Part shown: one piece after another, positions 7,771-49,827 of the stretch
Numbering within the stretch: position 1 is the stretch's first letter
How the letters are laid out: each line of letters starts with the position of its first letter
Origin: Erysipelotrichales bacterium
GTDB lineage: Bacteria > Bacillota_I > Bacilli_A > RF39 > UBA660
Direction: 5' to 3'
DNA length: 64,000 nt
NCBI GenBank assembly: GCA_022508565.1
Contig: JAFLUY010000008.1
Location: 9,325 to 73,324 of the forward strand
Made by a program: the position numbers and the translations under genes
The notes under the pieces: generated by a model
Database searches by the model: none
The model's input: the letters and a program-made list of their open reading frames with translations, nothing else
What the model was told of the DNA's origin: nothing

Positions 7771-8073
7771 TTATTCTTTATCTATTAATGCTTTAGCTTC
7801 TTCTGTAGCCATTCTAGCAAATTCTGTCCAATTATCAAAAATATCATCTTCTGTTATACCGTCAGTTTCATCACCGACAATTACACTCATAAGAAAATCT
7901 AAAAGTTCCGCATCTTCTCCTTTCTTTATTAAATCATTAAAGGCTTTATCTCTTTCAGCGTCATTATCAAAACCATCATTATAAATAATTTCTAATTGTA
8001 CAGGAATTGATTGTGCTAAACGACTTCCTAAATCATTTTTGAATTCTTTAATAAATGTTATTAAACTTTTCAT
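7771..8073 (-). CDS. small acidic protein with CTS-like N-terminus (MKSLITFIKE)
   Basis: 100-aa ORF. Confidence 0.6.
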   Translation of the reverse strand: MKSLITFIKEFKNDLGSRLAQSIPVQLEIIYNDGFDNDAERDKAFNDLIKKGEDAELLDFLMSVIVGDETDGITEDDIFDNWTEFARMATEEAKALIDKE

Positions 8074-8083
8074 CTTTATAAAA

Positions 8084-8368
8084 TTAAATTTTATTTATAA
8101 TTCGATAAAAATCTTCAGTTATCTTTTCTGAAAATTCTTTTATATCTTCGGGAGTCAATCGATGAATATCAGACTTTATTTCAACAGATGTCAATTTTCC
8201 TCTTTGAAATGATAATCCATCTCCATAGATTTCCCCAATAATATTTATAATAATATCTCCTAAACAATTAGTATATTTAAATGGAGATTCTGTAATTAAT
8301 CCCATTTCAGCAGAATATACGCATTCTTCTAAAATTGAATTATATATATCTTTCAATATTGGATTCAT
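8084..8368 (-). CDS. hypothetical protein
   Basis: 94-aa ORF co-oriented with its neighbours. Confidence 0.55.
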   Translation of the reverse strand: MNPILKDIYNSILEECVYSAEMGLITESPFKYTNCLGDIIINIIGEIYGDGLSFQRGKLTSVEIKSDIHRLTPEDIKEFSEKITEDFYRIINKI

Positions 8369-8387
8369 ATCTTATAAATCGTATTTA

Positions 8388-8528
8388 TTATGATCTAATT
8401 AAATTATTTGTTTTCTTTTTCTTTTTTGAATCTTCCGTGATCATGCCTTCATCAACATAAATCCCATCCGCTTCCGCTATGTTATCTTCTATTTGATTTA
8501 TAAATATATTAGTATCTGTAATAATCAT
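8388..8528 (-). CDS. possible small ORF (46 aa), not in the ORF track
   Basis: Hand translation gives MIITDTNIFINQIEDNIAEADGIYVDEGMITEDSKKKKKTNNLIRS*. It fills an otherwise empty gap in a co-oriented gene run. Confidence 0.3.
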   Translation of the reverse strand: MIITDTNIFINQIEDNIAEADGIYVDEGMITEDSKKKKKTNNLIRS

Positions 8529-8540
8529 AAGATTGTTTTA

Positions 8541-8771
8541 TTATTTTATATTTGGATTATTATAATCTTCAGAGGGTGGATAATGCGGCCAAACCTCTGT
8601 ACTTGGAAATTGATAATCTTCTGGAATATTTTGATTCTGTACTCCATCGCTTCCAATAAAAGTACCGTCTTCAATAATTTCTCCGCAATTGATTTCATTT
8701 TGGTTTTCGGAACCATATTCTAAATATATTCCTAATCCTGTACCGTCACAAAAATCTTTATATTCTTCCAT
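8541..8771 (-). CDS. hypothetical acidic protein
   Basis: The 76-aa minus-strand ORF looks protein-like. The overlapping plus-strand ORF 8493..8723 is hydrophobic, low-complexity antisense. Confidence 0.5.
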   Translation of the reverse strand: MEEYKDFCDGTGLGIYLEYGSENQNEINCGEIIEDGTFIGSDGVQNQNIPEDYQFPSTEVWPHYPPSEDYNNPNIK

Positions 8772-8791
8772 AATTATTTATTCTTCCACAA

Positions 8792-9022
8792 TTATTTATT
8801 CTCTTCAATCCATTTACTGATTCCTTCTTTAAGATATTCATGATCTTGTTTAAAAGATTTCATATAAATCCAGTCAAGTAAATCGTATATAGATTTTGAG
8901 ACCACTTCACTATCATCAATGAATTTTAATTTATTAATAAACTTTTCGGCCATTTCTTCCCAAAAATCTTGACTAATCTCCTTATGTCGAGTTTCAGATA
9001 TAATTTGATTTAATGTTTTCAT
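8792..9022 (-). CDS. small protein with CTS-like N-terminus (MKTLNQIISE)
   Basis: 76-aa ORF. Confidence 0.55.
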   Translation of the reverse strand: MKTLNQIISETRHKEISQDFWEEMAEKFINKLKFIDDSEVVSKSIYDLLDWIYMKSFKQDHEYLKEGISKWIEENK

Positions 9023-9057: not shown

Positions 9058-9345
9058 TCATTGTCTCCAACCAATTTCCGTAGCTAAAGCTCCAAGAACA
9101 AGACGAGAAGTCAATAAACTACCAAATGAACCTTTAGGATCCACTCCAAGTATTTTACATAGAGTTTTCATAATAGCAGGACCAAAAGTTACACCTGTAA
9201 TACCTCCGAGAATAGCTGAAAACAATCCTTCATCTATAGGAATATTATTTTCTTTAGCTTCTTGTAATTTTTGGATCATATCATCATACATTTGATCTTC
9301 TGTGATGATATTGTCTTCATTTATATAATCTTTAATTGCTTTCAT
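9058..9345 (-). CDS. small membrane protein with CTS-like N-terminus (MKAIKDYINE)
   Basis: 95 aa with two glycine-rich hydrophobic segments (GLFSAILGGITGVTFGPAIM and FGSLLTSRLVLGALATEIGW). Confidence 0.55.
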   Translation of the reverse strand: MKAIKDYINEDNIITEDQMYDDMIQKLQEAKENNIPIDEGLFSAILGGITGVTFGPAIMKTLCKILGVDPKGSFGSLLTSRLVLGALATEIGWRQ

Positions 9346-9354
9346 ATTTTCTAT

Positions 9355-11004
9355 TTAGAATTTTTTTCCACCCCTTCTACTTAAATTAGCCATCTGCTCG
9401 GATATCATAAATTTTACATCATCAACACTTAACTCATTTTCAGGATCTTCTCCTAATTGGAAGATTCTTGCACAAGTAGCAAAAGACCTAATGGAAATTT
9501 CCATATCTGCTCCTTTATCTGCTAATTCTGTGAGATATTCATAAGCCTGTATTTTTGATTTTGCTGATAACTTTCCAGGATCAATTGCAGGCATTATTTT
9601 TTTAATTCTATCTAATAGTTGTTGTGTTGTGAAATCCAACGATTGTGTAAATACGCGATTTCTTAAAGCTGTATCAAGTTGTCCAACTGAATAATTTGTA
9701 ATGACAATTACTGAACCAGCATAAGACATGGTTTTCGGTACAGGAACTCCTTCATCATCTTTAAGATCTCCCGTAACTCTATATGATACTAAACGTCCTC
9801 CTTCATCATCTGTACTAGAATCTAATGCTCCTTTAAGAATATTGATGACGTCTTCCGGTGCACGCGGACCAACTAAAGCATCAGCATCATCTATGACTAT
9901 CATTTCTCCTTTATCTTTATGAGTATACATAGATAAATATAATTGTCTAGGTGTACATTTACCTTTAATTATATCAAGATTTTGTCCATTAATATATCCT
10001 TTAGATTTCAATTGAGTCAATACTGTATATGTCTTACCAATTCCAGGAGCTCCGCACAATATTACACCGGGCTGCAGACCTTTAACAACAGAATTTACAT
10101 AAGCATACATATGTTTAAAAGCTGTTTCTGGATCCTGTGTTTCTTTTTTAAATTCTTTAGATATTTTTTCTAAAGACTCATCTTCATTACTTATTTTAAC
10201 ATTTTTCTTAATGGATATGTTTAAATCTTCTAAAGAAGTTGCTCCACCTTTAATAGCATTCAATATAGTTCTATATTCTTTATAAAATTTACTAGCAGCT
10301 TCACGATCTCCCGCATCATAAGCTTCACGATGTTTTCTATATACTTCTTTTTTACGATCTTCTAATTCTCCTTCAAAAATAAAATTATATCCATTTCTGC
10401 TAGCAATAGTAGATTTTACTTCAAATATTTCCGAGATCCTATCATTCGAAATATTTTCATAGATTTTATAATTTAAAGCGCCGATATAAAAATTATGATA
10501 ATGCTCTTTCATAGTTTTATCATAAACTTTACCAGCTAATTCTTTAATTTTAGTTTCCGATAAAGAATAGTCTTTTGAATTTATTACATGATATATTACA
10601 GGAAGATAATATACGATACTAGCTCCCATAAAATTTAAATCTAAATTTCCTTTAACTGGATTATCTTTATCTTCTGACCAAAGTAATTTTTCTAAATTTG
10701 CTTCTGAATAAAAAGTTACCGAATACGGATCAAAAGTTTTAGAATTATTTTTAAAGTTGATAGAAAGAGCTCTAACATCTTTTGTTCCAAAATATATAAA
10801 ATATGATTGACATTCGTCTCCATTTACATTTAAACTATATGGAGCATTGTCTATATATACTTTATCATTTATATTCTTTCTTAAAAGTTTTAAAATTAGA
10901 TCCATTACTTTTTTAAAATCTTCATTTTTAAAACCCTCAAAAAGTCTTTTCGTATTTTCGTAGTTTTCGTTCTTTTTATTTATAAAATCTAAAAAACTAG
11001 CCAT
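9355..11004 (-). CDS. AAA+ ATPase with a large N-terminal domain of unknown function
   Basis: Walker A CGAPGIGKTY, Walker B MIVIDDAD and a sensor-like VIVITN. The N-terminus MASFLDFINK is a degenerate CTS-like sequence. Confidence 0.75.
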   Translation of the reverse strand: MASFLDFINKKNENYENTKRLFEGFKNEDFKKVMDLILKLLRKNINDKVYIDNAPYSLNVNGDECQSYFIYFGTKDVRALSINFKNNSKTFDPYSVTFYSEANLEKLLWSEDKDNPVKGNLDLNFMGASIVYYLPVIYHVINSKDYSLSETKIKELAGKVYDKTMKEHYHNFYIGALNYKIYENISNDRISEIFEVKSTIASRNGYNFIFEGELEDRKKEVYRKHREAYDAGDREAASKFYKEYRTILNAIKGGATSLEDLNISIKKNVKISNEDESLEKISKEFKKETQDPETAFKHMYAYVNSVVKGLQPGVILCGAPGIGKTYTVLTQLKSKGYINGQNLDIIKGKCTPRQLYLSMYTHKDKGEMIVIDDADALVGPRAPEDVINILKGALDSSTDDEGGRLVSYRVTGDLKDDEGVPVPKTMSYAGSVIVITNYSVGQLDTALRNRVFTQSLDFTTQQLLDRIKKIMPAIDPGKLSAKSKIQAYEYLTELADKGADMEISIRSFATCARIFQLGEDPENELSVDDVKFMISEQMANLSRRGGKKF

Positions 11005-19643: not shown

Positions 19644-20726
19644 ATGACAGATCAGGAACTAATAAAAAATATTCAAAAACATAAGAAAATACTTTGGGAA
19701 AAACATTTAACAAAAGAAGAATTAATCTATTTAGAAAATAGATTTGAAAAATTTAACTCATATGCAGAGTCTTATTATAGAATATTATATAAAATAGAAG
19801 AAATGCCAAAATGTCCAGTATGTAAAAAAACATTAAAATTTATTTCATTAGGCAGAGGCTATGTAAATTTCTGTTCTCATAAATGCGCAGCAAAACATAA
19901 TCAAGAGCATTATAGAGAAATTTGTTTAAAAAGATATGGAATTGATCATCCATTTAAAAGTAAAGAACTACAAGAAAAAATTCATTCGAAAGAAATGTCT
20001 GAATATCATAAAAAGAAGTCATTGGAAAAATGGGGTACTGAACATCCGATGCAATCTGAAAAATATAAAAAATATTTTAAAAAATGTATTGAGAAAAAAT
20101 ACGGAAATGGAGTAACTAATGTTTGGCAGGCTGAAGAAGTTAAAAAGAAATTAAAAAATACATGGTTAGAAAAATATGGGACATCCGTCCCTAGTAAATC
20201 AGAAGAAATAAAAGAAAAAATTAAACAAACAAATTTAGAAAGATACGGAGTAAGTTGCACATTGCAAATTCCTGAAATTAAAAGTCATACTAATACTCCA
20301 GAAGCTCAAAGAAAAATTCATGAATCTAAGAAAAGGAATGGTAGCTATGGATATTCTAAAAATGAGCTTGAAATTTTTAATAAATTAAAAGAAAAATTTC
20401 CAAAAATTATTTTTCAATATTTAGATATTAATAGATATCCATTTAAATGTGATTTTTATATTCCTGAATTAGATTTATTTATTGAATACCAAGGATATTG
20501 GACGCATGGACCTAAACCATATAATGATAATGATGAAGATTGCCTCAAATTTGTACAAAAATTAAATAATAAATATTTAGAAACTAATAAAAAATGTTAT
20601 TTAGATGCTGTTGAATCATATACTATAGGTGACGTAAATAAAAGAAAAGTAGCCCAAGAAAATAACTTGAACTACTTAGAATTTTTTAATATGAATGATT
20701 TTTATTATTGGTACAACAATCTTTAA
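19644..20726 (+). mobile_element. free-standing homing-endonuclease-like gene (Zn-finger + 5 x KYG repeats + Vsr/DUF559-like PD-(D/E)xK C-terminal domain)
   Basis: CPVCKK...FCSHKCA zinc-finger-like motif. Five tandem [KR][YW]G...QSxE...K repeats. The C-terminus SKNELEIFNKL...CDFYIPELDLFIEYQGYWTHG has a D...E-x-Q/K nuclease-like core. Its stop codon overlaps the stop of the convergent rimK-like gene. Confidence 0.45.
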
Positions 20727-22228
20727 AACATCTCTCCTTTAAGCATATCTTTTCTAGTAGGATTTATAATATATCCCATTTTAGACATCAAGTCACGATT
20801 TATAAGTACTGGAGTAGATTTCTTTCTGTTATCTACTAATGCAAATTCTGCATTTTTAAAACGTCTTGTACCAATTTTAATTTCATCAATCAATACAGTA
20901 TGGCGTTCTTCGCGTACTTGGCCAACCATTGGATTAGAAGATCCATGGCGTTTAAAAATATATTTTTCTCCATTAATTGTAGCCTCAATTTTATCTCCTT
21001 TTAATTCTACTTTATCACAACCAAGTGTACTTGATTTTGAGCCATTGCCGGTATCAAATTTAGCTTCTAAATCAAATTGTTTGTCTTCTATAAAGAATGT
21101 CATTTCTTCTCGGTATCCAATAGATTTAGGTTGCAATACTAATTCAGAAATATCATTAATCGCTTCTAAAAGAATTCCCATAAAATTTTCTCCGATGACT
21201 TCTGAAATACCATCTGTGCCAGGACTAGAATTCCATTCAAGCACTACATTGTCTCCTATTTCTGGATTTGAACCTTTTTTAAGAGGCATAATATCGACGG
21301 CACACCAAGGCATATTTGAAATTCTAGCAACTTTTAGTGCGATTTCTTCCTGTTCTTTTGTAAGTTCTACTTTTTCTGCGGAAGCTCCTAATGAAACATT
21401 TGATCTAAAATCTCCAGAAAGCTTCACCCTTTTCATACAAGCCAATATTTTTTGTTCGGTTCGATTAGTCAATACATGTACACGGATGTCTCCTCCATCT
21501 GCTTCTTCCTTCTTTTGCAAAAGTAATTCTAATTCCTCGTTGACTGCAAACATCGCTTGAAGCATCGCAAGAATGTTTTTATTGTTACACATAAATACTC
21601 CGGTACCTCCGTGTCCATCTAAAAGCTTTACAACATATTCTTGTTCTTTATTGTCTTCAGACCAATTATCATATATCATTTTTAATTTTTCTGATAAAGA
21701 TTCCATTCCTTTTTCAATATCGTCTTTTCCAAGAAGAGTAAATCTAGGTTGAGGAATTTCATATCGTTGCATCAATACAGCTGATTGATATTTGTTAGAA
21801 GCTCTTTTAGCAGATTGAATAGGATTAATCACAAATAATCCCCATTCTTGTAATTCTTTAATACATTCACAACACATTTCAGAATCTTGTGCTCCTAATC
21901 TAGCAATAACAATCGTATCTACATTAGATTCATCTTTAATCTTAATAGATTCTTTCTTATCCCAAATTTTAATCTCATTATTATTTGCTTCGTATGTAAC
22001 TTCTTCTGCCACAAATACTTTTAAAGCAACATGAGTATCTTTCAATATTTCTTTAAGATTTTCTAAAGTTTTATTTTTTTTGGGATCTCTTTCATTTGTA
22101 AAAAATAAGATTGTCGAAAAGAAATATTTATCATGAGAGTCTTTTGATCTATTTTTCATTTCTTGTTTTTCGAAAAGAACTTTAGACATCTCAGTTTGGT
22201 CTATTAAAAAATCACTAAAACGTTTCAT
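20723..22228 (-). CDS. rimK: RimK-type ATP-grasp (alpha-L-glutamate) ligase fused to a C-terminal RimB/PF05618-like retropepsin-type protease domain
   Basis: VVKLLDGHGGTGVF, GGDIRVHV, GDFRSNVSLGA and WNSSPG match E. coli RimK blocks (from memory). The C-terminal EAKFDTGNGSKSSTL...ALVDNRKKSTPVLINRDLM...IINP matches the AK-DTGA..SS...DR....L-GR pattern of the 'ATP-dependent zinc protease' domain. Confidence 0.75.
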   Translation of the reverse strand: MKRFSDFLIDQTEMSKVLFEKQEMKNRSKDSHDKYFFSTILFFTNERDPKKNKTLENLKEILKDTHVALKVFVAEEVTYEANNNEIKIWDKKESIKIKDESNVDTIVIARLGAQDSEMCCECIKELQEWGLFVINPIQSAKRASNKYQSAVLMQRYEIPQPRFTLLGKDDIEKGMESLSEKLKMIYDNWSEDNKEQEYVVKLLDGHGGTGVFMCNNKNILAMLQAMFAVNEELELLLQKKEEADGGDIRVHVLTNRTEQKILACMKRVKLSGDFRSNVSLGASAEKVELTKEQEEIALKVARISNMPWCAVDIMPLKKGSNPEIGDNVVLEWNSSPGTDGISEVIGENFMGILLEAINDISELVLQPKSIGYREEMTFFIEDKQFDLEAKFDTGNGSKSSTLGCDKVELKGDKIEATINGEKYIFKRHGSSNPMVGQVREERHTVLIDEIKIGTRRFKNAEFALVDNRKKSTPVLINRDLMSKMGYIINPTRKDMLKGEMF

Positions 22229-33855: not shown

Positions 33856-34239
33856 ATGAAAAGTTTAGTAGAATTTATTGCAGAATCTTTTAAAGGAGAT
33901 TTTGAGAAAAAAATGGAATTTCAAGAATTTTTCAATTTTTGGGCATCTAAAAAAGGATATAAAATGTGGACTGATAAAAAGAATCCTGATGATATTCAAA
34001 TCGATGATGATAAGTTTTGGAAAGATTTTGAAAAATGCGAGCCAAAGACTATTAATGATGATGAATTAAGCGCTAAAGATTTAGAAAACTTATATTTGAA
34101 TATTTATCCCGATAGAGAAATGATTATTCATGTTACTGAATTAAATAAAAATGATTGGGATTATCGAATTGAAGATACTAAAAAACCTAAAAGCGATTAT
34201 AATTTGCAATTCACATATAAAGAAAATATTTTTAAATAA
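33856..34239 (+). CDS. hypothetical protein with CTS-like N-terminus (MKSLVEFIAE)
   Basis: 127-aa ORF. Confidence 0.6.
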   Translation: MKSLVEFIAESFKGDFEKKMEFQEFFNFWASKKGYKMWTDKKNPDDIQIDDDKFWKDFEKCEPKTINDDELSAKDLENLYLNIYPDREMIIHVTELNKNDWDYRIEDTKKPKSDYNLQFTYKENIFK

Positions 34240-38804: not shown

Positions 38805-39398
38805 ATGAATATGAAATTAGAAGATTTATACAAAACATTTTTAGATGCTTTTGAAAACATTGAAACAAGAGAAAGTGAAGAAGAAAGAGAAGAAATTGAT
38901 TTATCTACAAAAGAAGGTTTTGATAAGATCAATAAAATGATGGATGAGCTTGAAGATAATCCGATTGCTACAGCATTTTTATCGATGACAGATTTAGATT
39001 TAAATCATTTACGTGAAGCGGTCAAAAAGTATTATGAAAATACTAAAGACGTAAAATGTGAATGTAATGACTATTGCAAATGTGATGACTATTGCAAATG
39101 TGATGACTATTGCAAATGTGATGACTATTGCGATTGTAATAAATGTTGTGAATATGATGACTCTTGTCATTGTGAATTTGTTAATGATGAAGATGACGAG
39201 GAATCTATTGAATTTACAGATTGTCCCTTGAGATACATTCATCAAATTGATCAAAAGCACTATAATAATATTGATACTTTAGTCGATGAATTTATGGGTG
39301 AAATGGAAGTTGAGTATGAAGAAGAATTATCTGAATCTAATTATCATAAATTAGAAAACATCCTTAAGAATTTTGCTGCTTTTATACTTTTAAAATAA
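38805..39398 (+). CDS. acidic protein with a central Cys-rich (CxCDDY)n repeat
   Basis: CECNDYCKCDDYCKCDDYCKCDDYCDCNKCCEYDDSCHCEF sits within an acidic 197-aa ORF. Confidence 0.6.
   Translation: MNMKLEDLYKTFLDAFENIETRESEEEREEIDLSTKEGFDKINKMMDELEDNPIATAFLSMTDLDLNHLREAVKKYYENTKDVKCECNDYCKCDDYCKCDDYCKCDDYCDCNKCCEYDDSCHCEFVNDEDDEESIEFTDCPLRYIHQIDQKHYNNIDTLVDEFMGEMEVEYEEELSESNYHKLENILKNFAAFILLK
39057..39146 (+). repeat. 18-bp in-frame tandem repeat: three perfect copies flanked by two degenerate ones
   Basis: tgcaaatgtgatgactat at 39075-39092, 39093-39110 and 39111-39128. Degenerate copies at 39057-39074 and 39129-39146. Confidence 0.9.
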
Positions 39399-40943: not shown

Positions 40944-40980
40944 AAAGTGGCAATTTTTTATAATTGTCACTTTATTTTTT
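40944..40980 (+). terminator. rho-independent terminator
   Basis: 12-bp stem aaagtggcaatt (40944-40955) / aattgtcacttt (40962-40973) with one G-U pair, then atttttt. Confidence 0.7.
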
Positions 40981-41211: not shown

Positions 41212-41595
41212 ATGATTGACAATTCTAAAGAATATTCATCTAACGATGAAATGGAATATTCATCTAGCGATGAAATAAATAATTCATCTAACGATGAACT
41301 TTCTTTTTTACGAAATAAAAAAGAATATATTTTGTGTGCTGCTTTAAGACGCAAAGAACCTAAAAAAGAAGTTTTAGGACTTCCAAATGATCTACCGTAT
41401 ATTGAAATCGGTCTTCGTCATTTCGATATTCGTGATAGATTTCCTGGAGAAGTTTCTATGAAGATAGATGATCAGGGGTTTCTAACTTCACATGGTAGAT
41501 TTGTCTCTAGGAAAGAAGCAGAAAAAATTGCAAAAGAATGTGGCCAAGTCACAGATATGATTGGAGGAATTTTAACATCTGAAGATTTATATTGA
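41212..41595 (+). CDS. hypothetical protein
   Basis: 127-aa ORF with a short N-terminal S[ND]DE-containing repeat (EYSSNDEMEYSSSDEINNSSNDE). Confidence 0.55.
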   Translation: MIDNSKEYSSNDEMEYSSSDEINNSSNDELSFLRNKKEYILCAALRRKEPKKEVLGLPNDLPYIEIGLRHFDIRDRFPGEVSMKIDDQGFLTSHGRFVSRKEAEKIAKECGQVTDMIGGILTSEDLY

Positions 41596-41662
41596 TTGTT
41601 AAAATCTATTTTTAATTAATTCGAAAAATCTTATTTTAATTAAGAAATATTTCTTAAATAAT

Positions 41663-42571
41663 ATGAAATCTTTAGTACAATTTATTGAACATAGTTCAAA
41701 TTCTTTATCTTTAAATGAATGTATTAAACGGTCGATGTCGATAAATGAAGGAGGACATTCTGTTAAAGACGCAGGTCCTATACCAGGGGATATCGCAGGA
41801 AAAGTAGGTAAAGATATTCTTAAAGATATTAAAAATAAATTTGCTTATGATGGTATACTATTAGGTTCGACTGGTAAAAAAGGTAAAGATCAAATGTCAG
41901 GAGATATTGATGTCGCTATTCAAGCTCCATGGGAAGATTATGAAAAAATAAAAAAATATGTAGAATCATTAGATAAGTTTACTGATTTTGGTAATATAAA
42001 TAAACAACTCCATGTCATAAATTTCGGATACGAATGGGAAACCGATAAAGTTGTACAAATAGATATAATGTTTGTTGAAGATTTAGATTTTGCTGATTTT
42101 GTATATCATTCTCCTGACTTTACAAAAAACGAATCAAAATATAAAGGTATGTATGCTTCAGCATTATTTATGGCAGTAGCTTCGTGTATACCAGTAAATA
42201 ATATAAATAAAGAAAAAGATGGTGAATGGGAAGAATATTTCTTTAGTCAAGCCGAAGGTTTAAAAATTGTAACAAAAACAAATATTGGTAAAAATACTAA
42301 ATTAAAAAATCCTAAAAAAGTATCTTCAAAAACAATTTCCAAAAATATTAATGATATTGTCAAAACAATTTTAGGAAATAAAGCAACTAAAGAAGATTGT
42401 TATTCATTTGAAAAACTTACTGAATATCTATCATCTAATAACTTTAAATATAAAGATAAATTACCTGATATACTCGAAAAATTTTCTAACGATTGGCAAA
42501 TTAAAATGAAGACATCTTCTGAACTTATGGAAGAACTTAAAAAATATTTAGAAGAAAAATTTAATCTATGA
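41663..42571 (+). CDS. Pol-beta-superfamily nucleotidyltransferase-like protein, paralog 1, with CTS-like N-terminus (MKSLVQFIEH)
   Basis: LGSTGKKGKDQMSGDIDVAI fits the G[SG]-x(9-13)-D-x-D minimal NTase motif. 302 aa. Confidence 0.55.
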   Translation: MKSLVQFIEHSSNSLSLNECIKRSMSINEGGHSVKDAGPIPGDIAGKVGKDILKDIKNKFAYDGILLGSTGKKGKDQMSGDIDVAIQAPWEDYEKIKKYVESLDKFTDFGNINKQLHVINFGYEWETDKVVQIDIMFVEDLDFADFVYHSPDFTKNESKYKGMYASALFMAVASCIPVNNINKEKDGEWEEYFFSQAEGLKIVTKTNIGKNTKLKNPKKVSSKTISKNINDIVKTILGNKATKEDCYSFEKLTEYLSSNNFKYKDKLPDILEKFSNDWQIKMKTSSELMEELKKYLEEKFNL

Positions 42572-43494
42572 GATCTCTAATAGAATTTTGTAAAGGTTCA
42601 TCTTTATCAATAAAAGAATATATAAATGAACAATTAAATATATATGAAGGAGGTAATGCAGTTACCGCTAATCCGATTCCTGCATTTATAACTCCATTAA
42701 TATATCAAGATATAGAAGAATCAATAAAAAAATATAATAATAAAATTAAAATTGTTCCTTTAGGTTCTATCGGTAAGAAAAAAGATGATGATTTTAATGG
42801 TGATTTAGATGTCGCTATAGATATAACAGATAGAGATCAACTTGTTTCGATGTTAGAAGAGATCTGGCCCGATAATGAAATAAATAAGTTTGTTACTCCA
42901 TCGATAGTTTCGATGTCATATCCTTATAATAAAGAAGGTAAGTCTGGTAATGCTCAAGTTGATTTTATGATGACTAAAAATATCGATTGGGCAAAATTTA
43001 GATATTCATCACCTGACCTTAAAAATGGAGAATCTAAATATAAAGCTGCTGCAAAAGTATTATTAATGAGATGTATAATTGCGGCTATACCTGTTAAAGA
43101 TGCTAAAGATGAATATTTTGAAGATGGAACAACAGTTAAAAAGAAATGGAAATATACATTCAATACCGAAGGAGTCTTTAAACAATTATTAGATTATACT
43201 GGTAAAAAGGGCCCATTAAAAAATCCAAAACGTCCTAAAGAATTCCAAGAATTAGTCACAAACGACCCAGAAAATGTTATGAAGTTTGCATTCGGAGATA
43301 AAGCCGATATTAAAGATTTCAATTCGGTAGAAGCATTATGGAAAGCGTTACATACAAAATGGCAATATAGTAAAGAAGCTTTAGGTAATGCCGAAAAATC
43401 TTTCTATGAAGATTATATATTTGATAAGAATCCTGAAGTAAAAATGGATCCTAAAGATTTTCCTTGTGAAATATATAAACCTGAAGAAATTTAA
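42568..43494 (+). CDS. Pol-beta-superfamily nucleotidyltransferase-like protein, paralog 2, with CTS-like N-terminus (MRSLIEFCKG)
   Basis: LGSIGKKKDDDFNGDLDVAID. It shares further blocks with paralog 1 (NEGG..V....IP, SPD..K.ESKYK, LKNPK). ATGA overlap with paralog 1. Confidence 0.55.
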   Translation: MRSLIEFCKGSSLSIKEYINEQLNIYEGGNAVTANPIPAFITPLIYQDIEESIKKYNNKIKIVPLGSIGKKKDDDFNGDLDVAIDITDRDQLVSMLEEIWPDNEINKFVTPSIVSMSYPYNKEGKSGNAQVDFMMTKNIDWAKFRYSSPDLKNGESKYKAAAKVLLMRCIIAAIPVKDAKDEYFEDGTTVKKKWKYTFNTEGVFKQLLDYTGKKGPLKNPKRPKEFQELVTNDPENVMKFAFGDKADIKDFNSVEALWKALHTKWQYSKEALGNAEKSFYEDYIFDKNPEVKMDPKDFPCEIYKPEEI

Positions 43495-43499
43495 AAATT

Positions 43500-45989
43500 A
43501 TGGAACATATTCAAGATATATATCAGAAAAAACCAGAATATATTAAAGACTTATTATTGCTTGATGATATTAAAATAAATCTTAAAGTAGATGGTAAACC
43601 GTTTCAAGTAGTATATAATGATACTACTGACGAAATTGAATTTCATGGGCGTTCTGGAAATGAAACAAAAGTGGGACCTCTTATAACTGATTATGATAGA
43701 TATTTTTCTAAAGCAATAAATGATGCAATAAAACATATCGAATCCAGAATTGATATTTTCAAAAAATATAAATTTCTAACTTTTGAAGTAATTGATAATA
43801 CTCTTCTATTAACGGCTGTAATTAAAAAGAATGGAGATTTTGTTAATTCGGCATCAGAAATCAAAAAGATATCCAACGAATTAGAAACTGATGTAATGCC
43901 TACTCTTTGGGAAGGTAAACTTAATCAAAAACAAAAATATTCATTATTGAATATAATAGAAGAAAATGTTCCAACTAAAAAAGATTTTATCGATTTTATA
44001 AAGAAATTATTCGATTCTTATGAAAATTTCCCTAAAAAACTTATATCAGCCTCTGATGAGTTTATTGAAGGAATCGTATTTTTCTTTAATGTAGACGGTA
44101 AAATCGTTGAATATAAATTAGTAGATCCTTCTTATCGACAATCGATGAAAGATAGAGATAACAACAATAAATTAGAAAGAGAAAAAAATGCAGATAAATA
44201 CGAAGAGATTTATAATATATTCTTAGATTATGTTGAAAATAATGCAGAAAAATTATCTGATAATAGAATTCATTCAATTGAATTAAATTACTTGAATATG
44301 ATGAAAGATTCTAAGATATATAATAAACTTATAAACCTTGGAGCTAATATTAAAATAAATAATAATGAACGATATACAGTTCAACTTGATCGAACTACTC
44401 CAGAATTAGCTAAAGCGATCAATAAGCACGGCAAAGTTTATACAACTCTTTATGAATTATTCTACAAATTGTTTAGTAAACCAAAGAAAAGAGGTTTTGT
44501 GATATCTAAAGAATTTCAAAATAAAGTAAATGATGCTACTGAATTGTTTGAAGGTTTTATACGTTATGAAAACGATTTAATATTTGAAAATAATGATGAA
44601 ATATTAAAACTTAAACAATTAATTAGATCACAAATAAAGAAAGTAAATTTAGATAAAAATTTAGAATTCGTATTATCTGCTACTAATTCACACAAATTAG
44701 AATTATTTAGATTTGATTTTGAAACATCTGATATCGATGAATTAAAAACTAAAATTAAAAAATATCTAAATTTAAATGACAAAAATGAATTCATTGTCGG
44801 TAATAAAAAATATATAGTAGATATTGAAAGTGGAGAATACGGAATTCATGGAGAAGCTTCAAAACAATATAATTCATTACCAATATATTTTAATGATATA
44901 GAATTTTTTATAACTAATAAACGAGGAAATAAATCAAATTATACTAGAGGAGCATTTGAACCTAATAAATTTGATATTTGTGATGATCATAAAAATTGGA
45001 ATTTAGATAAATTATATAATTATCTTATAAAATTCTTAGAAGGAGAAGAAGGAATAAAACGCTTCGGAGCTATTACAAATATATTAATAGCTTTAATTAA
45101 TAAAATATATAATTCTCCTATTATTAAAACTAATGACCAAAAATTTGTATTAGATTTTGAAATAGGGGAATATAATGATAGTACTTTAAATCAAATTTCT
45201 GCAGAATTTGGGGAAGTGCTTACGGCTATATATTATATGAAAAAATATCCAGGTTCTTTAGTTAGATTTCCTAAAGATGTAAATAATCCATTTTGTGATT
45301 TTTATTCAATCGAAGGTAAAAATGAATACCCAATATCTATAAAATCTGGAAGTACTATTGGGCATTCAATGGAGATATCGAATATATTAATGGGATATAG
45401 CATAGATGATCCAATAATAAAATCGGATAAAAATTTAACTGAATTTTATAAAGCCTCAATAAAATCTCCTAATAAATTATATAAACGTGAAGAAATATTA
45501 TGGAATGCGGCCAAAATATTTTTACCATTGGCGGTTGGCAAAAATGAAAAATATAAAGAAATTTGGGATTTTTTAACAAAAAATTTAGATGAATTAAATT
45601 TTAATGGAGTTATAAAATTATATAAAAAATATTTATCTAAAAATCCTCCTGAAGATTTGCCAATTTTTGTATATAATAAACCTGAAAAAAGTCCATTAAC
45701 TAATAAAGTAGACGATAAAAATTTATATTCTTATGTAATGCATGTTTTACAATTAGGAGTAATCGCTGTTTTAAATCAATTTAAAGATACACAAGATAAT
45801 TTTACAAAACTGGTTCAAAGATTATTTTTAGATGGTAAACAATCATACTGTAAAATAACAAAAAAATATATTAATATAACCACAAAAAGTTTAGACAAAT
45901 TAGATAAATCTGTTGAATTTACCGCGATTGGTTCAACATTTAATCAATATAAAGAACATGGTTTATTAATGTTTAAAATTAAAAAATAA
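43500..45989 (+). CDS. ATP-dependent (RNA/DNA) ligase-like N-terminal domain fused to a large C-terminal region with a possible PD-(D/E)xK-like nuclease motif
   Basis: Motif I NLKVDGKPF (KxDG). FLTFEV is motif III-like, EGIVFFF motif IV-like and EYKLVD motif V-like. The C-terminal region has CDFYSIEGKNEYPISIKSG (D...[ES]xK-like). 829 aa. Confidence 0.5.
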   Translation: MEHIQDIYQKKPEYIKDLLLLDDIKINLKVDGKPFQVVYNDTTDEIEFHGRSGNETKVGPLITDYDRYFSKAINDAIKHIESRIDIFKKYKFLTFEVIDNTLLLTAVIKKNGDFVNSASEIKKISNELETDVMPTLWEGKLNQKQKYSLLNIIEENVPTKKDFIDFIKKLFDSYENFPKKLISASDEFIEGIVFFFNVDGKIVEYKLVDPSYRQSMKDRDNNNKLEREKNADKYEEIYNIFLDYVENNAEKLSDNRIHSIELNYLNMMKDSKIYNKLINLGANIKINNNERYTVQLDRTTPELAKAINKHGKVYTTLYELFYKLFSKPKKRGFVISKEFQNKVNDATELFEGFIRYENDLIFENNDEILKLKQLIRSQIKKVNLDKNLEFVLSATNSHKLELFRFDFETSDIDELKTKIKKYLNLNDKNEFIVGNKKYIVDIESGEYGIHGEASKQYNSLPIYFNDIEFFITNKRGNKSNYTRGAFEPNKFDICDDHKNWNLDKLYNYLIKFLEGEEGIKRFGAITNILIALINKIYNSPIIKTNDQKFVLDFEIGEYNDSTLNQISAEFGEVLTAIYYMKKYPGSLVRFPKDVNNPFCDFYSIEGKNEYPISIKSGSTIGHSMEISNILMGYSIDDPIIKSDKNLTEFYKASIKSPNKLYKREEILWNAAKIFLPLAVGKNEKYKEIWDFLTKNLDELNFNGVIKLYKKYLSKNPPEDLPIFVYNKPEKSPLTNKVDDKNLYSYVMHVLQLGVIAVLNQFKDTQDNFTKLVQRLFLDGKQSYCKITKKYINITTKSLDKLDKSVEFTAIGSTFNQYKEHGLLMFKIKK

Positions 45990-45997
45990 TTAAAATT

Positions 45998-46570
45998 ATG
46001 CAAGACGTAACGATTTTTCCTGGTCGCTTTCAACCATTTCATTCAGGACATTTAAAGTGTTGTGAAGATATATATAAAAAGAATGGCAATCCTGTAGTTA
46101 TTTTATATATAACAAATAAAAAGTTCGATAAGAAAAAACCTTTTGATGATGAACTAACTAAAGAAGAATTAGAGATCGTCAAAAAGAATAATGATTTCAT
46201 TGCTGATATTTTTTGGATCCGTAATCCTCTAGCTGGTCCAATGATTGCTTTATGTAATGAACATGGATATAATCCTACTGTATGGATTGCTGGAGAAGAC
46301 CGATTAGAAAGTTATCAAAAAATGTTAGATGGATTAAGAAATCCCGATATCCATAAACCAGAACTCATTGAGACAAATAGATATTGTTCGGCAACAGAAG
46401 TTAGAGACGCTATATTAAAAGGAGATAAGAAAACTTTCGAAAAGCTTATGCCAAAAGGAACAGTAAAACTCTGGGAAAAATATAAAAAACAAATTGATAA
46501 AGTTTATAATACTAATGAAACTTATATTGGATTAGCTGATTATATCGCTGAGCAATTAAGAAGTAATTGA
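45998..46570 (+). CDS. nicotinamide/nicotinate-mononucleotide adenylyltransferase-like cytidylyltransferase-family protein
   Basis: The N-terminal FPGRFQPFHSGHL matches the archaeal/NadR-type NMNAT signature GRFQPFHxGH. ISATEVR lies near the C-terminus. Confidence 0.7.
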   Translation: MQDVTIFPGRFQPFHSGHLKCCEDIYKKNGNPVVILYITNKKFDKKKPFDDELTKEELEIVKKNNDFIADIFWIRNPLAGPMIALCNEHGYNPTVWIAGEDRLESYQKMLDGLRNPDIHKPELIETNRYCSATEVRDAILKGDKKTFEKLMPKGTVKLWEKYKKQIDKVYNTNETYIGLADYIAEQLRSN

Positions 46571-46612
46571 TTTTAATTATTTTTATTTAAATTAATTTTT
46601 ATAAAATCTAAA

Positions 46613-46888
46613 ATGAAAAGTTTAGTTGAATTCATTACAGAATCAAGGATAAATCCTAAAGATGTTATTGAAGCAATTGTTGGTGCTTATCAACAATGGG
46701 AATCAGATCTTGAAGATGAACCTGCACAATGGTCAGATATAGAAGATATGTATACTGCAGATGAACCAAGCGACGATGTTATTAAAGATATATGTGTTAG
46801 TCTTGGAGTAAAGGAAGAAGAACTTAAAAAATTCTTCTCTACTCCTCAAGGTAAAACAGCATGGAAAAATGCACAAAAAGAATTCTAA
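46613..46888 (+). CDS. small acidic protein with CTS-like N-terminus (MKSLVEFITE)
   Basis: 91-aa ORF. Confidence 0.6.
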   Translation: MKSLVEFITESRINPKDVIEAIVGAYQQWESDLEDEPAQWSDIEDMYTADEPSDDVIKDICVSLGVKEEELKKFFSTPQGKTAWKNAQKEF

Positions 46889-46921: not shown

Positions 46922-46953
46922 AAGCCGGCTAGAAATAGTCGGCTTCATTTTTC
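46922..46953 (+). terminator. rho-independent terminator
   Basis: Stem aagccggct (46922-46930) / agtcggctt (46937-46945) with one G-U pair, then cattttt. Confidence 0.65.
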
Positions 46954-47022: not shown

Positions 47023-48498
47023 ATGAAAGTGATCAAACGAGATGGTACTATCCAGGAATTTGACATCAAGAAACCTATTGAGGCTTTCAAGAAGCCTTTT
47101 ATAAATGGTTTGCAGAGAGAAGTTCCGGAAGGCTTACTTGAAAAATTTGAAATTGAACTCGAGAAGTTCATAAACAAACAAAAAGAAGAAGTTAATATTG
47201 AAGAAATTCAAGACTTCATTAGAGATTTCTTAATTAAGAAAAATCAATATGAAGCCGCTGAAAACTTTATTCTTTATCGTGAAAAACGAAATGAATATCG
47301 CGAAAAGAATACCAAGCTTCATAAGAATATTATTACAAAACTTTATGCAAAGAATATTGAAAATTCTAATGCAAATATGGATGAAGCCTCATTTGGCGGT
47401 AGAGTAGGTTCAGCAGCTTCAGAAGTTTGTAAAGATGAAGCATTAAAATTAATGTCAAGAAAGTTTAGAAAAAATCACGAAAATAATGAAATCTATGTTC
47501 ATGATTTAGATGCATTTTGCGACGGGCGCCATAACTGTTTGTCATATCCGATAGATAAATCCCTTAATGAAGGATTTTCTACTAGACAAACTGATGTTCG
47601 TGAAGCTAACTCTATATTGACTGCTTTGCAATTAGTTGCCGTACAATTTCAGTGTCAATCACTAGAGCAATTCGGCGGGGTTGCGGCAACACATATAGAT
47701 TGGTCAATGGTTCCATTTGTCAGAAAAAGCTTTATGAAACATTTTAAAGATGGGTTAGAATGGATTGGCTTATTCAATTGGAAAAAAGAAAAAATAGATA
47801 AATATATTAATGAAATTATTCCAGGAATAGAAAATAAGGATTCGGAAAATCCAATTCGTAGAACTTTAGCTATAGAAAAGAGTAAATATATTTTAAAGCA
47901 ACCCTGGTATAAATTATTTAAGAAATATAGATTACATAGAGCATATAAATATGCATTAAAGAAAACTAAAAGAGATACTTATCAAGGAGTAGAAGGACTT
48001 TACCATAATTTAAATACACTTCAATCAAGATCAGGATCGATGCTCCCGTTTAGTTCGATAAATTATGGTACATGTACTTTACCGGAAGGCCAAATGGTTA
48101 CTGATGCTATTCTTGATGTGACTATAAAAGGTCTTGGAGAACATGGTGTAACATCAATATTCCCTTGTGGAATTTTTCAATATAAAAAGGGCGTTAATGA
48201 TAAACCTAGAACACCTAATTATCATCTTTTTAGAAAAGCTCTTAAATCAACAGCTAAGAGGATTTATCCAAATTATGCAAACTGTGACTGGAGTAATCAG
48301 AAATCTTGGAAAGAATATGATTTGAAAATTCGTACAGAAGTTCTTAATGAATTGAATGAAGATGATACCGAAAAACTTATTAGTAAAGTCAAGCAAGATC
48401 CAGAATTTGCATTAGATCATTTTAGATTAATATATGATTATTATGGATTACATGTTATTGAAGAAGAACTCCCGATCGAGTTATTTTCAACCATGGGT
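47023..48498 (+). CDS. nrdD: anaerobic ribonucleoside-triphosphate reductase, exon 1 (ATP-cone + N-terminal catalytic part)
   Basis: ATP-cone start MKVIKRDGTIQEFDIKK. The class III RNR body follows. The exon ends ...ELFSTMG at a U (48498). Confidence 0.8.
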
Positions 48499-48768
48499 AA
48501 GCGAAATACTACAGCCCATGTAAAATTCCGTGAACCAAGCTTATTGGGTGTGGCTTAATAAAGCTGCTAACGGTTAGGTCCTAATAGGTGATGCTAAGGA
48601 TGAGACCGTGCTAAGATTTAAAGATTCATTCTTGAATAAAGTGTATCGACTATCCCTGATGAATGTAAGGGAGTAGGATTGGAGATAAGCACCAATTCCA
48701 AGCGCGGAACATTTATTTAATATAAATGAAGATATAGTCAGTACAAATAGTAATATTTGATTAATATG
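48499..48768 (+). ncRNA. group I self-splicing intron, ORF-less (about 270 nt)
   Basis: The 5' splice site follows U48498 and the intron ends with G48768. P1 pairs exon CAUGGGU (48492-48498) with internal guide GCCCAUG (48514-48520), placing a U-G wobble at the splice site. A long-range 7-bp helix joins 48526-48532 and 48703-48709. Hairpins occur at 48653-48672 and 48710-48728. The segment is visibly G+C-richer than its flanks. Splicing restores TMG|CRTANGG. Confidence 0.7.
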
Positions 48769-49827
48769 TGTAGAACAGCGAATGGTGGAGATATTTGGTT
48801 TAAAAATTCATTTGAAAAGAATTTAAAAGCTTGGATAAATGATGAGACTCTTTATGACGATATTATATCAGGTTGTCAAAAGGATGGTCGTGGAAATATT
48901 TGTCCAGTAACAATCATTCTTCCGACATTAGCAATGGAAGCTAAAGAATATATTGAGAAGAAAACCGAAAACCCAACTAAAGAAGAATATAAGAAAGCTT
49001 TTATTGATTTATTGACAAAGAAAATTCATGAAGCTAAAGATATGCTTATCGAAAGATTCGAACATATAGCTTCCCAATCTGCCGCATCGGCTAAATTTAT
49101 GTATGGAAATAAAACAATGTCAGGTTATGTTCCAGAAGAAGGAATACAATCAGCACTTCGTCATGGTACTATAGTTATCGGTAAAATCGGATTAGCGGAA
49201 GCATTAATTATTCTTATTGGAAAGGACCATTCAATTAAAGAAGGGATGGAATTTGCTAAAGAAATTGAAACTCTTTATAGAGATCTCTGTGCAAAATTTA
49301 AAGAAGAATACAAATTTAATTTTGGAAATTATAATACTCCAGCAGAATCACTTTGTCATACTTCATTAAAGAAATTTAGAGATAAATATGGTATCATTCC
49401 AAATGTTTCCGATAAAGAATATTTCACTAATTCTATTCATATTCCTGTACATAATAATAATATAAATATCTTTGAAAAAATCAATAAAGAAGCAGAACTT
49501 ACCGGATATTCTAGTGCTGGTTGCATAACTTATGTCGAGATGGATAGTTCAGCGGTAAATAATATTGATGCTATGGAAAAAATAGTTACATACGCAATGG
49601 ATAAAGATATCCCATATTTTGCTTTAAATTTCGATTTAAACAGATGTGCAAAATGTAATTATCAAGGAGGAGACATTAATGATGTTTGTCCTAAATGTGG
49701 AAGTCAGGATATTTTAGAACTCAAACGAGTAACAGGCTATTTGAGTACAACTAAAAAACATTTTAATCCTGGTAAAATTGATGAAGTAGATCATCGCTGT
49801 AAACATGAATCTAAAACAATTTTATAA
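48769..49827 (+). CDS. nrdD: anaerobic ribonucleoside-triphosphate reductase, exon 2 (C-terminal Zn-ribbon and glycyl-radical domain)
   Basis: CAKCNY...CPKCGS Zn ribbon and the glycyl radical motif KRVTGYLST. The ORF-track TTG start at 48757 is an artefact of the intron. Confidence 0.8.
   Translation, partial: CRTANGGDIWFKNSFEKNLKAWINDETLYDDIISGCQKDGRGNICPVTIILPTLAMEAKEYIEKKTENPTKEEYKKAFIDLLTKKIHEAKDMLIERFEHIASQSAASAKFMYGNKTMSGYVPEEGIQSALRHGTIVIGKIGLAEALIILIGKDHSIKEGMEFAKEIETLYRDLCAKFKEEYKFNFGNYNTPAESLCHTSLKKFRDKYGIIPNVSDKEYFTNSIHIPVHNNNINIFEKINKEAELTGYSSAGCITYVEMDSSAVNNIDAMEKIVTYAMDKDIPYFALNFDLNRCAKCNYQGGDINDVCPKCGSQDILELKRVTGYLSTTKKHFNPGKIDEVDHRCKHESKTIL

Follow-up and report, generated by a model that had tools for sequence, protein, structure and literature searches.

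Why would a phage keep two paralogous nucleotidyltransferases (NTases), a ligase-like protein and an enzyme resembling nicotinamide mononucleotide (NMN) adenylyltransferase (NMNAT) side by side? The four genes occupy positions 41663 to 46570 of a 64-kb stretch of contig JAFLUY010000008.1 (the window: all 64,000 nucleotides analyzed, positions 9,325 to 73,324 of a 377,382-bp contig with ~27% GC), deposited within the assembly of an Erysipelotrichales bacterium. The source of the window is a T4-like jumbo phage, based on a gp32-like single-stranded DNA-binding protein (SSB) encoded just 5′ of the cluster, a T4 gp6-like baseplate wedge protein encoded in the same phage, an intron-split NrdD gene, and genes for Gp23 and a gp21-type Peptidase_S77 protease that adjoin the same four-gene module in a relative (locus L003). 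We see about an even chance that the four genes are one conserved module, and that this module is a polynucleotide repair system of a T4-like jumbo phage clade that extends broken strands and then seals them. The proposal is built on observed folds, conserved catalytic residues, synteny, fusions and co-variation of a peptide tag; substrates, reaction order, NAD+ synthesis, nuclease activity and packaging are predicted.

All four genes are on the + strand. The genes for the NTases, NT1 (41663..42571, 302 aa) and NT2 (42568..43494, 308 aa), overlap by ATGA, and gaps of 5 and 8 nt separate the next two open reading frames (ORFs), which encode an 829-aa ligase-like/nuclease-like protein (43500..45989) and a 190-aa HIGH-motif, NMNAT-like adenylyltransferase (45998..46570; HIGH). 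This is the layout given in an earlier note on this DNA, and every motif quoted there is found at verified coordinates: the minimal NTase motifs LGSTGKKGKDQMSGDIDVAI and LGSIGKKKDDDFNGDLDVAI, the ligase motifs KVDG, FLTFEV, EGIVFF and YKLV, the D...SIK motif and GRFQPFHSGH. The observation made in the earlier note is real and was largely read correctly, and the grouping exceeds chance, as judged from the paralogy of the NTases, the invariant motif residues, the synteny and the placement of the tags at ORF starts; all functional statements here are drawn from sequence, predicted structure and gene context.

The gene set is syntenic in 22 related loci (about 15 of them distinct), where its common order is HIGH-NT1-NT2-ligase on one strand. 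NT2 is 5′ of the ligase gene in every locus with upstream sequence, and directly so except in L004 and L021. The HIGH gene precedes the ligase gene in most loci and stands just 3′ of it in L004, L005 and the window; the first two of these have no NT1 close to the ligase. The four genes remain together on one strand in loci that are only 45-65% identical, and in several relatives HIGH and NT1 form a single protein with neither a Met nor a stop at the joint. The related contigs include one from a goat-ileum metagenome-assembled genome (MAG). Of the phages on deposit, the Prevotella Lak megaphages are the nearest that show any similarity.

NT1 and NT2 are paralogs with 32% identity (blastp E 1e-26). 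The catalytic residues of NT1 are G68-S69, K72-K73 and D81/D83 (nt 41861-41920, + strand) and Q132/D134 (nt 42056-42073, +); the NT2 counterparts are GS...DxD (nt 42760-42819, +) and QVD (nt 42955-42972, +). An alignment of 24 members that includes NT2 has invariant L67-G68-S69, K72-K73, D81, D83, Q132-D134, S150-P151, S158 and K161. Because these columns are invariant, both proteins look catalytically competent, and conservation of the carboxylates in all 24 sequences bears out the previous assignment of the ~305-aa paralogs to the Pol-beta NTases. Pfam matches are below threshold but consistent, with NTP_transf_2 in 12 of the 24 members, DNA_pol_B_palm in four and Polbeta in three.

The AlphaFold2 (AF2) model of NT1 has a mean predicted local distance difference test score (pLDDT) of 89 and a predicted template modelling score (pTM) of 0.81, with low confidence only at residues 1-30, and a Pol-beta palm is visible in it. 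When the model is compared to the PDB with Foldseek, every one of the 48 matches at E<=0.001 is to a family X polymerase (Pol beta, Pol lambda or Leishmania Pol beta), with template modelling (TM) scores of 0.33-0.41 over 180-260 aligned columns that cover the palm and the next subdomain. The best matches in a viral structure library are uncharacterised phage proteins (Agrobacterium phage Atu_ph07, E 2e-11, TM 0.62-0.67), and giant-virus family X polymerases are lower in the same list. PDB sequence searches with NT1 and with the NT family profile gave no meaningful match. Pfam scans of the 24 members found no 8-kDa lyase domain and no helix-hairpin-helix domain; before the GS motif, NT1 has only a ~29-aa low-confidence propeptide and one helix (residues 42-60). 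Since these two domains are missing, the model supports Pol-beta-superfamily NTases with a family-X-like fold that are Pol-X-like and not canonical family X.

One close comparison is with minimal Pol X enzymes, such as the African swine fever virus (ASFV) Pol X and a 174-aa giant-virus Pol X. The palm motif GSxx(K/R)(K/R)...GD(I/V)D(V/I) is common to both groups, as is the third Asp, which sits on a 'Q/R-h-D-h' strand; GSxGKK...SGDIDIAI ... QVDFMF of the NT family resembles GSxRRG...GDxDxLI ... RxDI, the signature of Pol X. Like ASFV Pol X, the NTs have no 8-kDa or fingers domain. They differ in their low TM scores, in an extra C-terminal helical domain, and in belonging to an uncharacterised family that is confined to phages (Atu_ph07 and Lak phages).

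The note had suggested that NT1 and NT2 be compared with CCA-adding enzymes, CD-NTases, MNT and poly(A) polymerases. Profile and structure searches matched none of these groups, and family X was found instead. This result bears on a reading in which the NTases rebuild the 3′-CCA of tRNA, one paralog adding CC and the other A, or make or intercept nucleotide second messengers as CD-NTase-like, anti-CBASS proteins. Membership of the Pol-beta superfamily and the presence of two conserved paralogs fit such roles. No CCA-adding enzyme, poly(A) polymerase, cGAS/CD-NTase or MNT is among the 48 significant PDB matches, no Pfam tRNA-NTase or CD-NTase model matches any of the 24 members, PADLOC reports nothing and the window has no tRNA gene. 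We consider this reading very improbable, and the CD-NTase, CCA-adding and MNT assignments of NT1 and NT2 were rejected.

The NT family is also distinct from RlaP. None of its 24 members matches PF10127 (RlaP) at E<=0.1, hmmsearch and hhalign comparisons of the family with T4 NrdC.11, itself an RlaP protein, found nothing, and hmmsearch against other proteins of the T4 nrdC region was negative. Each of the 15 Lak megaphage genomes encodes an untagged homolog of the family, with 33-35% identity (E 1e-33 to 1e-36), and a search of 185,579 species genomes of bacteria and archaea (GTDB) turned up no relative. In Prevotella phage Lak-B6 (L025) the homolog (7998-8975) is untagged. Its neighbors are a dihydrofolate reductase-thymidylate synthase (DHFR-TS) gene, a dNMP-kinase-like gene and a gp32-like gene, and a second, unrelated Pol-beta NTase is encoded nearby on the minus strand (9756-10943). 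Neither a ligase nor a HIGH enzyme is encoded near the Lak homolog. The family, found in Lak megaphages and Atu_ph07-like jumbo phages, has so far had no assigned function, and the cluster offers one that can be tested.

The third gene encodes the 829-aa protein. Its N-terminal module (aa 1-350, 43500..44549, +) is predicted to comprise an adenylyltransferase domain and an all-helical domain. The ligase motifs are motif I with K29 in KVDG (nt 43584-43595), motif III with E96 in FLTFEV (nt 43773-43790), motif IV with E190-G191 in EGIVFF (nt 44067-44084) and motif V with K206 in YKLV (nt 44109-44129), all on the + strand; their equivalence to the motifs of T4 RNA ligase 2 (Rnl2) is based on order and spacing. 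In 17 homologs K29-V-D31-G32, R51, E96, E190-G191 and K206 are invariant, among other residues. These homologs match residues 1-350 at 50-65% identity, and some relatives consist of the N-terminal module alone. The earlier note had made its case depend on conservation of the NTase carboxylates and the ligase lysine and on synteny in relatives; these residues are invariant in 24 and 17 homologs, respectively, and the genes are syntenic in the related loci.

The AF2 model of the ligase protein (pLDDT 77.7) has a beta-rich domain that is followed only by helices (residues 210-350). Its top four Foldseek matches in the PDB are T4 Rnl2 structures (1s68, 2hvq, 2hvr; E 1.4e-5 to 3.1e-5), and full-length Rnl2 aligns with the model over 347-406 columns. 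The next matches are the Trl1 adenylyltransferase domain, archaeal Rnl3, Naegleria Rnl5, trypanosome REL1 and a capping enzyme. No OB-fold DNA ligase is among the matches, and the model has no OB domain of the kind typical of DNA ligases. Sequence comparison found none of this. The module has no Pfam, NCBIfam, PHROGs, PADLOC or PDB sequence match, and hhalign of the family profile with T4 Rnl2 was negative (probability 0.1%). Since sequence profiles miss the relation, we predict a very distant Rnl2-like ligase. According to the model, the N-terminus has the covalent-nucleotidyltransferase fold of an RNA ligase and not of a DNA ligase, which makes the former ligase assignment more specific. As in the T4 Rnl2 (gp24.1) family, KxDG/E/EG/K motifs are combined with an all-helical C-terminal domain in place of an OB fold. 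The module differs from T4 Rnl2 in that sequence similarity is not detectable and that two lysines, the one of motif IV and the second of motif V, cannot be made out. DNA and protein BLAST searches of the cluster against 50,697 phage records returned nothing for the ligase, and among the GTDB species genomes it was found only on one contig, that of the goat-ileum MAG.

The rest of the protein (aa 381-829, 44640..45989, +) is a lineage-specific module. It has a counterpart in no other ligase homolog and in no related locus, and the C-terminal halves of the ligase homologs are unrelated or only distantly related to one another. The BLAST search against the phage records gave a single 68-aa match for it, and a homology search with the profile of its family returned only two proteins. 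An exhaustive HMMER search recovered 26 weak relatives (E 3e-9 to 5e-4), mostly standalone proteins of ~430 aa. In 23 sequences (22 aligned relatives and the window protein) G571-E572, P591, D600, S613 and K615 are invariant, and these include a PD-(D/E)xK-type motif, E572...D600...S613-x-K615 (nt 45207-45350, +). The module is plausibly nuclease-like and compatible with PD-(D/E)xK, judged by this motif alone. For its fold, nothing consistent emerged when all 23 members were scanned with Pfam, a profile was searched against the PDB and PADLOC was run. The nuclease-like call of the earlier note thus stands as far as the conserved E...D...SxK and has no backing from Pfam, the PDB or the fold. 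The alternative C-terminal modules of relatives had no match in Pfam, NCBIfam, PHROGs or PADLOC. One of these families has the motif 'NP[AS]D[IV]I[LI]...PISLKK'; its hhalign comparison with the window family is not significant, though 'PIS[LIV]K' is common to both. Fusion of Rnl2-type ligases to a nuclease has a precedent in the HNH-Rnl2 proteins of jumbo phages (PMC7824862). Here the partner is C-terminal, is swapped between close relatives and is not HNH.

The fourth protein is best described as a HIGH-motif, NMNAT-like enzyme. GRFQPFHSGH is encoded at nt 46022-46051 (+) and SATEVR at nt 46388-46405 (+), and R10, H15, H18, S131, T133 and R136 are invariant in eight homologs. The protein matches CTP_transf_like (PF01467) above cut-off (E 7e-9). 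All 12 matches in a PDB profile search are NMN or nicotinic acid mononucleotide (NaMN) adenylyltransferases (E 1e-6 to 1e-2), so that all solved sequence relatives belong to this class. Archaeal NMNATs (MJ0541, Mth) and the NadM domain also share GRFQPFHxGH, S-x-T-x-x-R and a length of ~170-190 aa with it. The window enzyme is unlike them in scoring only 32-40 bits where curated cut-offs are 127-181 (NCBIfam NF002243, 39.5 vs 127 bits; TIGR01527, 32.5 vs 181), in having no Nudix or kinase partner domain, and in carrying a C-terminal tag or, in relatives, a fused Pol-beta NTase. The archaeal-type NMNAT of the earlier note is therefore upheld in its nearest relatives and falls far short of the curated models.

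The position of the HIGH gene raises another reading, in which the genes are co-located and do not serve a single pathway. HIGH would perform the NMNAT step of NAD+ salvage against NAD-depleting defences, and the NTases and the ligase-nuclease protein would act apart from it in host takeover or phage competition. Counter-defence is an established role of the phage NMNATs NadM and NadR (PMC9503650), the HIGH gene changes sides relative to the ligase gene among loci, NT1 is absent near the ligase in L004 and L005, and Lak phages have the NT gene alone. The linkage of all four genes in such divergent loci speaks for a shared pathway, as do the translational fusion of HIGH to NT1 in several relatives and a tag that is gained and lost in step on HIGH, NT1 and NT2. 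HIGH is also without a Nudix or kinase domain, and the window showed no NadV gene. We regard separate roles as improbable.

The tag is found at the start of both NTases, where the earlier note had described it as capsid-targeting-like. In a six-frame translation of the window, its seven-residue pattern has eight matches; all eight directly follow an initiator Met and none is internal. The copies differ in codon choice, an argument that selection acts on the peptide. The T4 capsid-targeting sequence (CTS), MKTYQEFIAE, is cleaved once after Glu (PMC8442874), and T4-type prohead proteases cut after Glu (PMC5694885). One ORF of the window, at 33856, starts with MKSLVEFIAE and is identical to the T4 CTS at 7 of 10 positions. 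The tags of NT1 and NT2 are more diverged from it, and their orthologs read MKSLIQYIQES. On sequence grounds the tag is real and resembles the T4 CTS, in agreement with the earlier description. The other six tagged ORFs (starts 2442, 2687, 4229, 33856, 46613 and 49864) encode proteins of 82-216 aa with no known function; their tag is MK[ST]L..F[IV].E, and they are mostly acidic (isoelectric point, pI, 4.1-5.0).

In the NTases the tag appears to belong to a removable propeptide. The predicted propeptide of NT1 (aa 1-29, 41663..41749, +) consists of the tag MKSLVQFIEH and a second tag-like segment, with a putative cleavage site between INE and GG (E29). That of NT2 (aa 1-27, 42568..42648, +) has the tag MRSLIEFCKG, the segment SIKEYINEQL and a putative site between IYE and GG (E27). 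Orthologs of both start MKSLIQYIQESL..I-x-E-G-G; the tag-like segment before the cleavage site is an addition in both proteins of this phage. In the NT1 model, pLDDT is 46-59 in this stretch only. The untagged Lak homolog starts 'MSGMAIKGSQPIKG', exactly at the propeptide boundary of NT1, where untagged NT1 orthologs start too, and in five related loci (L017, L018, L020, L021 and L022) an untagged NT2 starts 'MSGHAV' at the same E-[GS]G boundary. The low model confidence at residues 1-30 and these starts at the boundary support a separable propeptide.

In the same five loci the other two enzymes have lost the tag as well: NT1 is untagged in 4/4 loci with NT1 and HIGH in 4/4 with HIGH, L021 having NT2 only, and other ORFs there keep the tag. 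In the remaining loci NT1, NT2 and HIGH are all tagged. On HIGH of the window the tag-like peptide is C-terminal (LADYIAEQLRSN, 46532..46567, +). It aligns with the joint of the HIGH::NT1 fusions and, in L003, L004 and L005, with the C-terminal end of each standalone homolog, and in some relatives it is the in-frame joint to unrelated downstream domains. HIGH tag sites in relatives were noted at 6856-6897 of L003, in the HIGH genes of L004 and L005, and in L009 and L024. The co-variation and the C-terminal or joint placement mark the tag as modular, three of the cluster's proteins having acquired or lost it together. To our knowledge, no C-terminal or internal CTS has been described for T4.

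A CTS-like peptide followed by a Glu-X boundary makes it probable that NT1, NT2 and HIGH are loaded into the prohead; with an N-terminal tag on the NTases and a C-terminal tag on HIGH, they would be trimmed by a gp21-type protease and injected with the DNA. The protease is known here only from L003, where PF03420 scores 42 bits against a cut-off of 27 and the gene adjoins that of Gp23, 1.5-3 kb 3′ of the module; none was seen in the 64-kb window. In L003 (13050-14750) the Peptidase_S77 domain is the N-terminus of a 566-aa protein encoded directly 5′ of Gp23, which suggests a protease-scaffold fusion. As in IPI, IPII and IPIII, internal proteins of T4, a short N-terminal peptide that ends at Glu is common to otherwise unrelated proteins, and the lineage has, in L003, a gp21-type protease and Gp23. 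Unlike in T4, the proteins loaded here would be enzymes that handle nucleic acids and nucleotides, and tagged proteins are mostly acidic; unlike the T4 CTS the tag is duplicated in NT1 and NT2, is C-terminal or internal on HIGH and is present on far more genes.

These differences allow another reading, in which the shared peptide does not target capsids and is an N-terminal helix for some other use, for example contact with a phage factor, turnover at a set time, or initiating translation on AT-rich mRNAs without a Shine-Dalgarno sequence; the enzymes would then act only once made in the infected cell. It would account for how frequent the tag is (eight tagged ORFs in the window, as many as 10 per 17 kb in related loci, and 10/34 in L008), for the mostly acidic tagged proteins, and for tags at internal joints and on the C-terminus of HIGH where that of T4 is N-terminal. 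It leaves aside the 7/10 identity to the T4 CTS in a lineage with a gp21-type protease and Gp23, the codon differences between copies, and the Glu-X boundary at which untagged orthologs begin. We put its likelihood a little short of even, and packaging and injection of NT1, NT2 and HIGH at about even. For the NTases, injection is something that we infer; it was proposed in the earlier note with the same reserve. If the tag works as in T4, enzymes of repair and nucleotide metabolism would be injected with the phage genome, and this would widen the roles known for T4 internal proteins, which so far include anti-restriction.

A broader variant, which we think unlikely in full, makes the cluster a cut-extend-seal kit delivered by the virion. 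The injected NTases and NMNAT-like enzyme would act before any phage gene is expressed and, together with the ligase-nuclease protein, would mend RNA or DNA ends or deliberately reshape them. Nuclease, Pol-beta NTase and Rnl2-type ligase would follow the same logic as in kinetoplastid RNA editing. In a sub-variant, HIGH would pre-adenylylate 5′-phosphate ends for a ligase that is without two of the Rnl2 lysines.

In the extend-and-seal reading that we favor, NT1 and NT2 would add missing nucleotides to the 3′-OH of a broken strand, most likely RNA such as cleaved tRNA. K29 of the Rnl2-like module would form ligase-AMP, and the nick between 3′-OH and 5′-phosphate would then be sealed. Because it is fused to NT1 in some relatives, HIGH would work together with the NTases, most plausibly by converting NMN and ATP to NAD+. 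The variable C-terminal module of the ligase would be an accessory, in the window probably a metal-dependent nuclease; metal-dependent nucleases of this kind leave 3′-OH/5′-P ends that the other enzymes could use directly.

The precedent for this reading is RlaP. RlaP Pol-beta NTases associate with RNA ligases in jumbo phages, their distribution mirrors that of the RNA ligases, and they are predicted to restore nucleotides lost from cleaved RNA before ligation (PMC7824862). RlaP adds one or two NMP to the 3′-OH ends of RNA (PMC12776372). As in RlaP modules (T4 NrdC.11; the Pseudomonas RtcB-RlaP-RtcA operon), the cluster has a Pol-beta NTase beside an RNA ligase in a jumbo or T4-like phage. The proposed role, the addition of one or two nucleotides to a damaged 3′-OH before ligation, is similar, and so is the layout of NT1 and NT2, an NTase domain followed by a helical domain. 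The NT family differs in having no sequence or profile relation to PF10127 or NrdC.11 and in a fold nearest to family X, and the window module differs in its two paralogs, its tag and propeptide, and its fused or associated HIGH enzyme. Extend-and-seal is favored because these NTases, though not RlaP, hold the same genomic partnership with an RNA ligase, and the ligase type and the published precedent make RNA the more likely substrate. Of the functions listed in the earlier note, repair of breaks in RNA or other nucleic acid is thus the one favored by the RlaP and RNA ligase precedent; CCA repair and second-messenger roles gained no support, since no CCA-adding enzyme or CD-NTase was found among the significant structure matches or in PADLOC.

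Modules of a Pol-beta NTase and an RNA ligase are a recognised and barely characterised form of phage counter-defence. The cluster may be a case in which a second, unrelated NTase family, polymerase-X-like, was recruited to the RNA ligase partnership. It adds three unusual couplings: the fusion or association with an NMNAT-like enzyme, an exchangeable C-terminal module on the ligase, and a T4-type tag that co-varies on three enzymes.

Several points weigh against extend-and-seal repair of RNA. No kinase, phosphatase, 2H or RtcB end-healing enzyme and no tRNA gene is encoded in or near the cluster, and the NT family is unmatched to RlaP and T4 NrdC.11. The ligase call rests on one model of moderate confidence (pLDDT 77.7, TM 0.3-0.45), sequence profiles fail to link the module to T4 Rnl2, and two Rnl2 lysines, that of motif IV and the second of motif V, seem to be absent. 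HIGH is far below the cut-offs of the NMNAT models, and no NadV/Nampt gene was seen within the window. For the packaging part, the tagged proteins were tested for the basic pI expected of internal proteins, with a negative result: most are acidic, unlike the basic internal proteins of T4. The tag is also very frequent (up to about one-quarter of the ORFs in some loci), and the ligase-nuclease protein is untagged, its N-terminus being part of a confidently folded domain. The family-X-like fold, the gp32-like SSB and NrdD genes that flank the cluster and the DNA-metabolism neighbors in Lak phages are just as compatible with DNA as the substrate.

A DNA or ribo-patch substrate is therefore a serious rival, to which we give a low probability. 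The NTases would fill in short gaps or extend DNA 3′ ends with ribonucleotides, the Rnl2-like ligase would seal nicks with a 3′-ribonucleotide, following the logic of bacterial LigD, and the PD-(D/E)xK-like domain would process DNA ends. Packaged polymerases would repair the injected genome, as in ASFV, whose virion contains Pol X, a ligase and an AP endonuclease. The sole significant PDB matches of NT1 are to DNA polymerases beta and lambda, and giant-virus family X is found in the viral library. The position between the gp32-like SSB and NrdD genes points the same way, as does the Lak homolog with its DHFR-TS, dNMP-kinase-like and gp32-like neighbors and no ligase nearby. RNA end-healing enzymes were not found in or near the cluster, and Rnl2-family ligases seal duplex nicks in which the 3′-OH strand is ribo, which we also count for DNA. 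What favors RNA is that the ligase matches RNA ligases only and its model has no OB domain, that the NTases have a single helix before the palm and no 8-kDa or helix-hairpin-helix DNA-binding domains, and that the published associations of Pol-beta NTases with Rnl concern RNA repair.

Terminator-like hairpins at 40944-40973 and 46922-46945 bracket the cluster and three small ORFs, which is weak evidence because two were found where 1.1 are expected. The last gene before the 3′ hairpin is a tagged 91-aa ORF (46613..46888, +; MKSLVEFITES) that may be in the same transcription unit as the cluster. Just 5′ of NT1 is a 127-aa ORF (41212-41595) with a repeated SSNDE-type acidic segment at its N-terminus and a C-terminal domain of phrog_839 (unknown function). 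This domain is 85% identical to an ORF elsewhere in L005, which places the ORF outside the conserved module. Neither Rfam nor ARAGORN detected a tRNA gene, or an RNA gene of another kind, within the cluster, and no tRNA gene was found in the window. AT-rich sequence without a recognisable Shine-Dalgarno sequence precedes the gene starts (for example 41603-41662 and 46553-46612), consistent with a Bacteroidota-type host such as Prevotella.

The nrdD gene is split into ORFs 47023-48558 and 48757-49827 by an ORF-less insert of ~270 nt (48473-48760). The insert matches the group I intron model RF00028 end to end (30.8 bits against a gathering threshold of 50, E 5e-6), and the exon junction reads ...FSTMG/CRTANGG. 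A group I intron is also present in T4 nrdD. Farther away, a homing-endonuclease-like ORF (19644-20726, minus) adjoins a 501-aa ORF (20723-22228, minus) with weak similarity to phrog_2599, a 'ribosomal protein S6 glutaminyl transferase' PHROG. The ORF at 38805-39398 has a Cys-rich tandem repeat, with DDYCKC four times within ...KCECNDYCKCDDYCKCDDYCKCDDYCDCNKCCEYDDSCHCEF... and very acidic flanks, and may bind metal.

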